The position numbers were made by a program, and so were the translations under genes. The notes under the pieces were generated by a model, which saw only the letters and a list, made by a program, of their open reading frames with translations, ran no database searches and was not told where the DNA came from. A DNA stretch of 64,000 bases from Escherichia coli (GTDB taxonomy: Bacteria > Pseudomonadota > Gammaproteobacteria > Enterobacterales > Enterobacteriaceae). Location of the stretch: the NCBI RefSeq assembly GCF_022846255.1, contig NZ_AP025682.1; one strand, 5' to 3'. Positions 47,599 through 51,897 of this stretch are shown here, in pieces (the first letter of the stretch is position 1; every line of letters starts with the position of its first letter).

Positions 47599-48648
47599 AT
47601 GGCAACAGGCACGCAGCCCGATGCTGGGCAGATCCTCAACTCGCTGATTAACAGTATTTTGTTAATTGATGACAATCTGGCGATCCATTACGCCAACCCC
47701 GCCGCGCAACAACTGCTCGCCCAAAGCTCCCGCAAATTGTTTGGTACACCGTTACCGGAACTGTTGAGCTACTTCTCATTAAATATCGAGCTGATGCAAG
47801 AAAGTCTGGAGGCGGGGCAAGGTTTTACCGATAACGAAGTGACGCTGGTCATCGACGGGCGCTCGCATATCCTTTCTGTGACGGCTCAGCGTATGCCGGA
47901 CGGCATGATCCTGCTGGAGATGGCACCGATGGATAACCAGCGCCGCTTAAGTCAGGAACAGCTACAGCACGCCCAGCAGGTTGCTGCCCGTGATTTAGTG
48001 CGCGGCCTGGCACATGAGATTAAAAATCCGCTTGGCGGTTTACGTGGCGCGGCGCAGCTACTCAGCAAAGCATTACCTGACCCGTCACTACTCGAATATA
48101 CCAAAGTGATTATCGAACAGGCGGACCGGCTGCGAAATCTGGTCGACCGTCTGTTGGGGCCGCAGCTGCCCGGTACGCGCATTACCGAAAGTATTCACAA
48201 AGTGGCTGAACGCGTGGTGACGCTGGTGTCGATGGAACTGCCGAACAACGTGCGGTTGATTCGGGATTACGACCCCAGCCTGCCGGAACTGGCGCACGAC
48301 CCGGATCAAATTGAACAGGTCTTGCTGAATATTGTGCGCAATGCGCTACAGGCGCTGGGGCCGGAGGGTGGTGAAATCATTCTGCGTACCCGCACAGCGT
48401 TTCAACTGACCTTACACGGCGAGCGCTATCGGCTGGCGGCGCGGATTGATGTGGAAGATAACGGGCCGGGCATTCCGCCTCATTTGCAGGATACGCTGTT
48501 TTACCCGATGGTCAGCGGCCGCGAAGGTGGCACCGGGCTTGGCTTATCCATCGCCCGTAATTTGATTGATCAGCATTCAGGCAAAATTGAATTTACCAGT
48601 TGGCCAGGTCATACCGAGTTCTCGGTTTACCTGCCTATCAGGAAATAA
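47599..48648 (+). CDS. glnL: Nitrogen-regulation sensor kinase NtrB
   Basis: 349 aa; PAS region, H-box [14 protein letters not shown], HATPase (DNGPGIP...GTGLGL). Confidence 0.95.
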
Positions 48649-48659
48649 AGGTGACGTTT

Positions 48660-50069
48660 ATGCAACGAGGGATAGTCTGGGTAGTCGATGACGATAGTTC
48701 CATCCGTTGGGTGCTTGAACGTGCGCTCGCTGGAGCGGGTTTAACCTGTACGACATTTGAGAACGGCGCGGAAGTACTGGAGGCGCTGGCGAGCAAAACG
48801 CCGGATGTGCTGCTTTCAGATATCCGTATGCCGGGAATGGACGGGCTGGCGCTGCTCAAGCAGATTAAACAGCGCCATCCGATGCTTCCGGTCATCATTA
48901 TGACCGCACATTCCGATCTGGATGCTGCCGTCAGCGCCTATCAACAAGGGGCATTTGATTATCTGCCCAAACCGTTTGATATCGACGAAGCCGTGGCGCT
49001 GGTTGAGCGCGCCATCAGTCATTACCAGGAACAGCAGCAGCCGCGTAATGTTCAGCTTAACGGCCCAACGACCGATATCATCGGTGAAGCGCCAGCCATG
49101 CAGGACGTGTTCCGGATTATCGGTCGGCTTTCGCGTTCTTCTATTAGCGTGCTGATTAACGGCGAATCCGGCACCGGTAAAGAACTGGTCGCTCATGCCC
49201 TGCATCGCCACAGTCCGCGAGCCAAAGCGCCGTTTATCGCGCTCAATATGGCGGCTATCCCGAAGGATTTGATCGAATCCGAACTGTTTGGTCACGAGAA
49301 AGGCGCATTTACCGGCGCGAATACCATTCGTCAGGGGCGTTTTGAACAGGCTGATGGCGGTACATTATTTCTTGATGAAATTGGCGATATGCCGCTGGAT
49401 GTGCAGACGCGTTTGCTGCGCGTGCTGGCAGACGGTCAGTTTTATCGCGTTGGCGGCTATGCGCCGGTGAAAGTAGATGTGCGGATTATCGCTGCCACTC
49501 ACCAGAATCTTGAACAGCGGGTGCAGGAAGGCAAGTTCCGTGAGGATCTGTTCCACCGCCTGAACGTCATCCGCGTTCATCTGCCGCCACTGCGCGAACG
49601 TCGGGAAGATATTCCCCGTCTGGCACGCCATTTTTTACAGGTTGCCGCGCGAGAGCTGGGCGTAGAAGCGAAGTTGCTGCATCCGGAAACCGAAGCCGCG
49701 CTGACGCGTCTGGCGTGGCCAGGCAACGTGCGCCAGCTGGAAAACACCTGTCGCTGGCTAACGGTGATGGCTGCCGGACAGGAAGTGTTGATTCAGGATT
49801 TGCCTGGCGAACTGTTTGAATCAAACGTACCGGAAAGCACTTCACACATGCAGCCGGACAGTTGGGCAACGCTGTTAGCACAGTGGGCAGACAGAGCGCT
49901 GCGTTCCGGTCATCAAAACCTGCTTTCCGAAGCACAGCCAGAGCTGGAAAGGACGTTACTGACCACCGCGCTGCGACATACGCAGGGGCATAAACAGGAA
50001 GCGGCGCGGCTACTTGGCTGGGGTCGCAACACCCTGACGCGTAAGTTAAAAGAGCTGGGGATGGAGTGA
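48660..50069 (+). CDS. glnG: Sigma-54-dependent response regulator NtrC
   Basis: [25 protein letters not shown]...; AAA+ region with GESGTGKE and GAFTGA, C-terminal HTH; 469 aa from the internal Met. Confidence 0.95.
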
Positions 50070-50180
50070 TTCACGGCTTGTGTGTAAAGATTGATTATTG
50101 AGCGCAAATTGCTGGTATTTTGCGCTTTACTGTTCCGATAAGTTCAGTATGATCTTGCCCGGAAAACGGGGAGAGTCATT

Positions 50181-50291
50181 ATGCTGGAATCAATAATTAA
50201 TCTGGTATCGAGTGGCGCAGTTGACAGCCACACACCGCAAACTGCTGTTGCTGCCGTGCTGTGTGCCGCGATGATAGGGCTGTTTAGCTGA
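50181..50291 (+). CDS. yshB: Small membrane protein (36 aa), YshB-like
   Basis: ATG preceded by ggggagagtcatt; MLESIINLVSSGAVDSHTPQTAVAAVLCAAMIGLFS; below the 60-aa cutoff of the supplied ORF track; recalled as the K-12 small protein YshB. Confidence 0.5.
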   Translation: MLESIINLVSSGAVDSHTPQTAVAAVLCAAMIGLFS

Positions 50292-50306
50292 AGCTCGTTG
50301 TTTACG

Positions 50307-50458
<152 letters not shown>

Positions 50459-50523
50459 TCTTGTTCTCAGCACATTGATGGCGCTTTCGTTTTCTACTTT
50501 GTAAACGAAGCGCCATTCACAAT

Positions 50524-51897
50524 TTAAATCACCCGAGAGAACTGCTGCATCCGCGCTTTCTGGCGCAGATAGGTATCAAAGCACATGCAAATGTTGCGGA
50601 TAAGCAGGCGACCTTTCGCCGTCACCTGAATCCCCTTCTCATCCACATCCACCAGCCCATCTTTTGCTAACGGGGCGAGCAGCTTGAGATCTTCCGCAAA
50701 GTAATCAGCGAAGTACAAATCCCACTGTTGCTCAATCGGAGCGTAATCCAGACGGAAGTTGCAGATGAGCGACTTAATCACATCGCGGCGAATACAGTCA
50801 TCACGCGTTAGCGCAATACCACGCCACAGCGCATTGCCTTGTTCATCCACTTGCTGATAGTACTGCTTCAACTCTTTCTGGTTCTGCGCGTAGCAGTCGC
50901 CAATCATGCTGATGGCGGAAACGCCCATCCCCAGCAAATCGGTATCGCCCTGAGTGGTATAGCCCTGGAAGTTACGATGCAACACGCCTTCGCGCTGGGC
51001 CACTGCCAGCTCGTCATCAGGGCGAGCAAAGTGATCCATACCGATAAACTGATAGCCCGATTGTGTCAGGAAGGCGATGGTTTCCTGCAAGATATCGAGT
51101 TTTTGTTGCGGACTCGGCAAGTCAGCATCTTTGATTTTGCGTTGGGCGGCAAAAATAGTTGGCAGATGCGCGTAGTTAAAGACGCTCAGACGGTCAGGGT
51201 TCAGTTCCGCCACGCGTTTCAGGGTAAAGGCGAAACTCTCCGGCGTCTGTTTCGGCAGGCCGTAAATCAGGTCGATGTTGGTGGAGGTAAAACCAATCTC
51301 ACGCGCATGGTTAAGCAGTGCAAAGATGAACTCTTCATCCTGCTCGCGGTTAACCAGACGTTGCACTTCTTTGTTGAAGTCCTGCACGCCCATGCTCAGG
51401 CGATTAAAGCCTTCGGCGCGTAAATGATCGAGTACATCCAGTTCGATTTCCCGCGGATCGACTTCGATCGAAATCTCCGCATCGGCATTGAACTGGAAGT
51501 TTTCGCGCAGCAGCTTCATCAGGCGGCTGATTTGCGCTTTATTCAGATACGTCGGCGTTCCGCCGCCCCAGTGCAATTGGCTGACGTGACGCCCGGCGAA
51601 CAGCGGTGCACGATGGACGATTTCTTGCTCCAGCGCGTCCAGATACTGATCGGCCTTGTGCTGCTGGCGAGTAACAATCTTATTGCAACCGCAGAAGTAA
51701 CAAAGCTTATGGCAGAACGGAATATGTACGTAGAGAGATAATGGACGCTCAGGATAGCGCGCCACGGCTTGTAAAAACGCCTGTTCGCCGAAGTCTTCTG
51801 AAAACTCCAGCGCGGTCGGGTACGAGGTGTATCGTGGCCCGGAATAGTTATATTTCTGGATCAGGGCCAGATCCCAGTCGATTTGCTGTACAGACAT
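50524..51897 (-). CDS. hemN: Oxygen-independent coproporphyrinogen III oxidase (radical SAM)
   Basis: MSVQQIDWDLALIQKYNYSGPRYTSYPTALEF...; radical-SAM motif CHKLCYFCGC; 457 aa. Confidence 0.9.
   Translation of the reverse strand: MSVQQIDWDLALIQKYNYSGPRYTSYPTALEFSEDFGEQAFLQAVARYPERPLSLYVHIPFCHKLCYFCGCNKIVTRQQHKADQYLDALEQEIVHRAPLFAGRHVSQLHWGGGTPTYLNKAQISRLMKLLRENFQFNADAEISIEVDPREIELDVLDHLRAEGFNRLSMGVQDFNKEVQRLVNREQDEEFIFALLNHAREIGFTSTNIDLIYGLPKQTPESFAFTLKRVAELNPDRLSVFNYAHLPTIFAAQRKIKDADLPSPQQKLDILQETIAFLTQSGYQFIGMDHFARPDDELAVAQREGVLHRNFQGYTTQGDTDLLGMGVSAISMIGDCYAQNQKELKQYYQQVDEQGNALWRGIALTRDDCIRRDVIKSLICNFRLDYAPIEQQWDLYFADYFAEDLKLLAPLAKDGLVDVDEKGIQVTAKGRLLIRNICMCFDTYLRQKARMQQFSRVI

Follow-up and report, generated by a model that had tools for sequence, protein, structure and literature searches.

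Immediately downstream of glnG, in a 64,000-nucleotide stretch of Escherichia coli DNA (contig NZ_AP025682.1; hereafter, the window), there is a short open reading frame whose length is well within what might be found by accident in any intergenic region, and the locus raises the question of whether this frame is a genuine gene and, if so, which one. The original prediction, made from the sequence alone, described it as a yshB-like gene for a small membrane protein of 36 residues and considered that a longer open reading frame of 70 aa on the opposite strand was most likely spurious. Our study leaves us all but certain that positions 50181-50291 are yshB, a core enterobacterial small-protein gene that has already been catalogued; the gene itself is known and ordinary, and there is nothing new about it in the window. 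The evidence for this identification, the alternatives to it, and what can be proposed about the mode of action of the protein are presented below.

Identity of the 36-codon open reading frame

The frame was found on the plus strand exactly where it had been placed, running from an ATG to a TGA, and it translates as MLESIINLVSSGAVDSHTPQTAVAAVLCAAMIGLFS. It is important to note that 37 open reading frames of at least 20 aa overlap the 2.5 kb between positions 49000 and 51500. A frame of 36 codons is, taken alone, at the level of chance, and the case for a gene consequently rests on comparative evidence. Three kinds of such evidence raise this frame above chance: a match to a known family, a frame that is kept in related genomes, and expression signals that are kept with it.

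The product is identical at 36 of 36 residues to YshB of E. coli K-12 (b4686, YP_002791260.1), and the coding DNA differs from that of K-12 MG1655 by only three nucleotides, all of them synonymous and located at third positions. The protein also matches the NCBIfam equivalog NF033841 (small_YshB) with 72.1 bits (E = 2.4e-20; cut-off 34), in an alignment that spans the complete protein (residues 1-36) and the complete profile (positions 1-40 of 40). In this way, the comparison with YshB, which had been set beforehand as the test able to refute the prediction, came out positive both by sequence identity and by the family HMM. The exact protein is present as YSHB_ECOLI in a collection of ~15 billion proteins, where it occurs on more than 1000 contigs. 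Our local copy of Pfam-A gave no match for the product, the model PF28018 (YshB) being apparently absent from that copy; PF28018 does appear in the precomputed annotations of the Salmonella orthologue and of others.

The genomic position also agrees with the prediction, given that the frame lies between the glnG stop (50069) and a REP cluster (~50300-50457) that is followed by the stop of the convergent hemN gene (50524). The predicted ribosome binding site, GGAG, is part of a longer GGGGAG motif located 7 nt before the ATG (Table 1). With K-12, the window shares the protein, glnG upstream, convergent hemN downstream, and the sequences of the promoter and the ribosome binding site; beyond the synonymous changes, only the REP cluster differs, by indels of 6 nt and 10 nt and by one extra REP unit. 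With regard to the coordinates, the mechanical list of open reading frames begins glnG at a TTG at position 48600, and the annotated ATG comes only 20 codons later, which indicates that the starts in this list are not gene starts.

Table 1. Coordinates of the features of the glnG-yshB-hemN region in the window.
Feature	Position	Strand	Basis
glnG (ntrC)	48660..50069	+	Annotation of Nissle 1917 (identical region) and of K-12; ORF list
9-bp hairpin, GAGCGCAAA / UUUGCGCUU	50100..50127	+	Fold; directly after the glnG stop
Sigma-70-type promoter-like site, TTTACT-16 nt-TATGAT	50126..50153	+	Sequence scan, alignment
Antisense 70-aa ORF, spurious	50144..50356	-	ORF list
Shine-Dalgarno GGGGAG	50168..50173	+	7 nt before the ATG; GGG core invariant in the 7-lineage alignment
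yshB CDS	50181..50291	+	ATG, 36 codons and TGA; ORF list, family match, frame conservation
REP/BIME cluster, three REP units and one partial	~50300..50457		Inverted and direct repeats
Strong 13-bp-class hairpin	50478..50516		Fold; 8 nt past the hemN stop
hemN, convergent	50524..51897	-	Annotation in Nissle 1917 and K-12; ORF list

Occurrence and annotation among E. coli genomes

The distribution of the locus among 5,426 complete E. coli genomes was analyzed by megablast, with positions 50070-50530 (461 bp) as the query. Among the matches listed, these 461 bp are 100% identical in Nissle 1917, in several strains typed as O25b:H4-ST131 and in other strains, and the annotation under these identical matches reads "yshB: YshB family small membrane protein". 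The gene order in Nissle 1917 is glnA-glnL-glnG-yshB-hemN(-)-yihI(-), and it is the same in K-12 MG1655. For the population as a whole, we used a query of 176 bp that extends from the promoter to the stop codon; this sequence is present in exactly one copy in 5425 of the 5426 complete genomes, always with at least 95% identity.

The original prediction stated that the gene falls below the 60-aa threshold of the supplied list of open reading frames and would be lost in routine annotation. The former is correct, but the latter does not hold: RefSeq/PGAP names yshB in 39 of 40 records sampled evenly down the ranking, and the protein has been called on the more than 1000 contigs mentioned above. 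The sole unannotated record of the 40 is NZ_CM176498.1 (E. coli Eco_23-2678; L011:301-476), in which codon 20 has changed from CAA to TAA (equivalent to position 50238 of the window), so that a stop takes the place of the otherwise invariant Q20. The lack of annotation in this record is thus due to a natural nonsense allele, whose presence in a natural isolate implies that this strain, at least, can do without yshB.

Conservation of the frame and the locus in other lineages

We compared the locus of the window with those of Salmonella (L003) and of four more distant lineages (L005/L006, L007/L008, L009, and L010), using as a measure of divergence the identity of their GlnG proteins to that of the window, which is 92-96% for these lineages. 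In all of them, as well as in K-12, yshB is located directly after glnL-glnG and on the same strand. The convergent pair hemN-yihI is found downstream of yshB in every lineage except L007/L008, where yshB also follows glnG and a solute-binding protein gene (SBP_bac_5) replaces hemN (L007/L008:2615-3300); the linkage of yshB is therefore with glnLG and not with hemN. A length of 36-37 codons, the ATG, and the GGG of the Shine-Dalgarno sequence are kept in Salmonella and in the four further lineages.

A particular case was observed in the metagenome-assembled L010 (L010:2501-2656), in which the stop codon of yshB has been lost and the resulting product of 51 aa overlaps, by 15 nt at its 3' end, the convergent hemN. 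This contig may simply hold errors, since its glnG is split into two calls.

At the sequence level, the pairwise Nei-Gojobori dN/dS values against the other lineages are 0.04-0.26, with dN of 0.05-0.39 and with synonymous sites near saturation (dS about 0.8-2). The differences from Salmonella number 5, 0, and 14 at codon positions 1, 2, and 3, respectively, and the +1 frame is the only one without internal stops in all seven sequences. As judged from these alignments, the yshB frame is under purifying selection in related genomes, so that the conservation of the frame, which the prediction had also left to be checked, is borne out by the low dN/dS, the excess of changes at third positions and the single open frame.

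The alignment of 10 homologues contains seven invariant residues (M1, E3, H17, Q20, T21, A22, and C28), and five others are at least 90% conserved (T18, P19, L27, A29, and F35). The product of the window has the core of the family, namely 36-37 residues with H-T-P-Q-T-A, followed by L-C-A and by an F near the C-terminus. When 1.84 billion cluster representatives were searched exhaustively with HMMER, 15 relatives were retrieved at E <= 0.001; most of them are variants or mis-called forms of YshB, and identity falls to 53-60% in the two most divergent. The YshB of Salmonella enterica is ~92% identical, with three conservative changes (V23L, M31L, and I32V), and its gene likewise follows glnG, at the equivalent locus and with the expression signals seen in the window. 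The Salmonella locus differs from that of the window in the lack of a REP cluster after yshB, and hemN is reached after 89 bp. E. coli, Klebsiella, Salmonella, and Shigella have been reported to share the smORF family of yshB as part of their core genomes (bioRxiv 10.1101/2020.07.27.224071).

Expression signals and flanking elements

In the spacer between glnG and yshB, the alignment of the seven lineages has TTTAC, GTAT.AT, GGG, and the ATG as its invariant elements, among columns that for the most part vary. The first two of these elements belong to the promoter-like site of Table 1, which is the only sigma-70-like site found between positions 49800 and 50800, and its spacing is also kept across the lineages (TTTAC, 16-17 nt, TAT.AT). 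According to published work, yshB has a promoter of its own, from which transcription does not depend on nitrogen status (PMC9731577).

The hairpin that follows the glnG stop is a candidate terminator of glnALG. Of the lineages compared, E. coli, Salmonella, and L009 alone have kept it, and the 71-nt stretch that contains it is no more stable than its shuffled versions (z = 0.09). The 3' arm of this hairpin extends into the -35 hexamer of the promoter-like site, TTTACT; consequently, the candidate terminator of glnALG and the promoter of yshB would share bases.

Downstream of yshB, the region 50285-50525 has a fold z-score of -6.6, and within it positions 50328-50399 match the Rfam family naRNA4 (RF02564) with a minus-strand score of 77 bits and a plus-strand score of 51.9, for a gathering score of 59.5. 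We rejected this match as a specific sRNA gene, given that it is a generic REP/BIME match and that an E. coli genome has, as a median, 32 places that match this region. The REP cluster is absent from this position in Salmonella and in the other lineages, in which a simple GC-rich hairpin follows the yshB stop instead. Closer to hemN, the strong hairpin at 50478-50516, which is identical in K-12, is probably the terminator of hemN, and it possibly also stops read-through from yshB. There is no clear T-run after it on either strand, which is why it escaped a simple terminator scan.

Alternative interpretations of the locus

The presence of a short open frame after glnG could be explained without a protein, if the frame had arisen by chance in the non-coding 3' UTR of glnALG or within an sRNA gene similar to NrsZ of Pseudomonas, which is located downstream of ntrBC. 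The abundance of short open reading frames in the region, with the 37 counted above in 2.5 kb, is compatible with such an origin, and the corresponding Pseudomonas locus does hold an sRNA (PMC9731577). However, synonymous sites between lineages are near saturation and yet the protein has been kept; the length, the ATG, the stop, and the Shine-Dalgarno sequence are conserved; the product matches a curated family, NF033841; no Rfam family matches the yshB open reading frame; and mass spectrometry has revealed the protein in its native form (PMC12529367). We consider that this explanation is effectively refuted and that its probability is negligible. Practically no probability remains either for the converse assignment, in which the minus-strand frame of 70 aa would be the real gene and the plus-strand frame its shadow. 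This frame is the longer of the two, it passes the 60-aa threshold, and it has no stop within the yshB span in E. coli and in Salmonella (L003), but in five of the six other lineage sequences (L005, L006, L007, L009, and L010) it is interrupted by stops over the same span. Its start codon lies in a REP unit, and its first 22 codons, the N-terminal third of the frame, consist of REP sequence that the other lineages lack. Moreover, its product has no match in NCBIfam or in the local Pfam, its exact sequence is absent from the ~15 billion proteins, RefSeq does not annotate it in the corresponding regions of Nissle 1917 and K-12, and the third-position wobble tracks the plus-strand frame. The antisense frame is therefore spurious, as had been proposed, since it belongs to no family, has no exact match, is broken in five lineages and starts in an E. 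coli-specific REP element; as an alternative to yshB, it is effectively refuted.

A third interpretation accepts the protein and adds a second function, according to which the yshB transcript, with its REP-containing 3' end, would also be a regulatory RNA. Such a transcript would be short and abundant in stationary phase, and the highly structured REP elements that follow the gene match the naRNA4 family. These elements are nevertheless specific to E. coli in this position and their naRNA4 match is the generic one described above, the nucleotides are not conserved beyond what the protein requires, and the literature searched contains no experimental hint of this function. We regard it as very improbable, and the interpretation of 50181-50291 as the protein-coding gene yshB is the one that we maintain in what follows.

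Properties of YshB and a possible mode of action

YshB has no Lys or Arg, contains two acidic residues and has a GRAVY of 1.12. In the Kyte-Doolittle profile, the 15-residue windows 21-35 and 22-36 both have a mean of 2.37, and the N-terminal 14 residues are amphipathic. The AlphaFold2 model, which was built from a 10-sequence alignment and is of moderate confidence (pLDDT 70, pTM 0.31), contains helices at residues 2-12 and 18-34. The hydrophobic stretch comprises about 15-17 residues, which is short for a transmembrane helix. A search of the PDB by sequence retrieved no solved structure that contains YshB, even at E = 10.

Several published observations are relevant to these properties. TMHMM and TOPCONS predict one membrane-spanning segment in YshB, and the N-terminally tagged protein is cleaved in vivo and in vitro by the intramembrane S2P protease RseP, both chromosomal and purified, which made YshB a class I candidate substrate; these cleavage data come from tagged and mostly overproduced constructs (PMC10470546). 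Native, untagged YshB has been detected intact in E. coli by top-down mass spectrometry, in a report that labels it a "small protein" and does not count it among the "small membrane proteins" (PMC12529367). Its predicted abundance exceeds 11,000 copies per stationary-phase cell (PMC7549839; PMC10502375), and the His-tagged protein was undetected in one study (PMC7549839). Salmonella has been reported to require its YshB both to replicate intracellularly and to be virulent (Bomjan 2019, J Bacteriol 201:e00314-19, as cited in PMC10470546 and PMC9731577); it is for Salmonella only that the virulence phenotype has been demonstrated.

Based on the predicted helices and on the conservation pattern, the molecule would be organized in three parts: residues 2-12 would form a short amphipathic helix, H17-T-P-Q-T-A22 an invariant polar hinge, and the C-terminal part a hydrophobic helix carrying the invariant C28. 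The hydrophobic helix, of 15-17 residues, would most likely be inserted post-translationally into the inner membrane, with the N-terminus predicted to remain in the cytoplasm. Once there, YshB may bind and modulate a larger membrane protein through the invariant face formed by HTPQTA and C28, as an accessory or regulatory subunit, and its level would be set by the growth phase, RseP, and other proteases. This scheme is weakened by the shortness of the hydrophobic span, by the moderate confidence of the model, by the classification of YshB in the mass spectrometry report, by the undetected His-tagged form, and by the tagged constructs behind the RseP data; we found no evidence against the identification of the gene.

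This scheme draws on an analogy with MgrB, AcrZ, CydX, and MgtS, whose respective partners are PhoQ, AcrB, cytochrome bd, and MgtA. These four small membrane regulators resemble YshB in their size class, in having a single predicted hydrophobic helix, and in their growth-phase or stress-linked expression. By analogy, YshB probably acts in the same way on a putative larger membrane partner. The differences are also clear: there is no sequence similarity between YshB and these proteins, and its helix lacks flanking basic residues. None of the four is known to have a counterpart of the invariant polar HTPQTA hinge. The likeness is that of a possible working mode and not of homology. Several of these regulators were RseP substrates in the same screen as YshB (PMC10470546).

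A more specific version of this scheme is that the HTPQTA hinge and C28 form a putative binding or ligand site that regulates an inner-membrane complex, with cleavage by RseP as the off-switch. We put this version forward as a speculative suggestion with a rather small chance of being right. If it were true, and regulation through HTPQTA and C28 took place in stationary phase or during intracellular growth, the virulence phenotype of Salmonella would be explained.

Significance of the locus

These results illustrate that a threshold of 60 aa for open reading frames conceals real and conserved genes of small proteins, which can be recovered by a careful reading of the raw sequence, and that the longer antisense frame that passes the same threshold is an artefact. 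To the question of yshB, the window adds only the pattern of conservation of its residues and of its expression signals. The gene to which this pattern belongs is a core enterobacterial gene, present in all but one of the 5426 complete E. coli genomes, for which a role in the virulence of Salmonella has been reported in the papers cited above.
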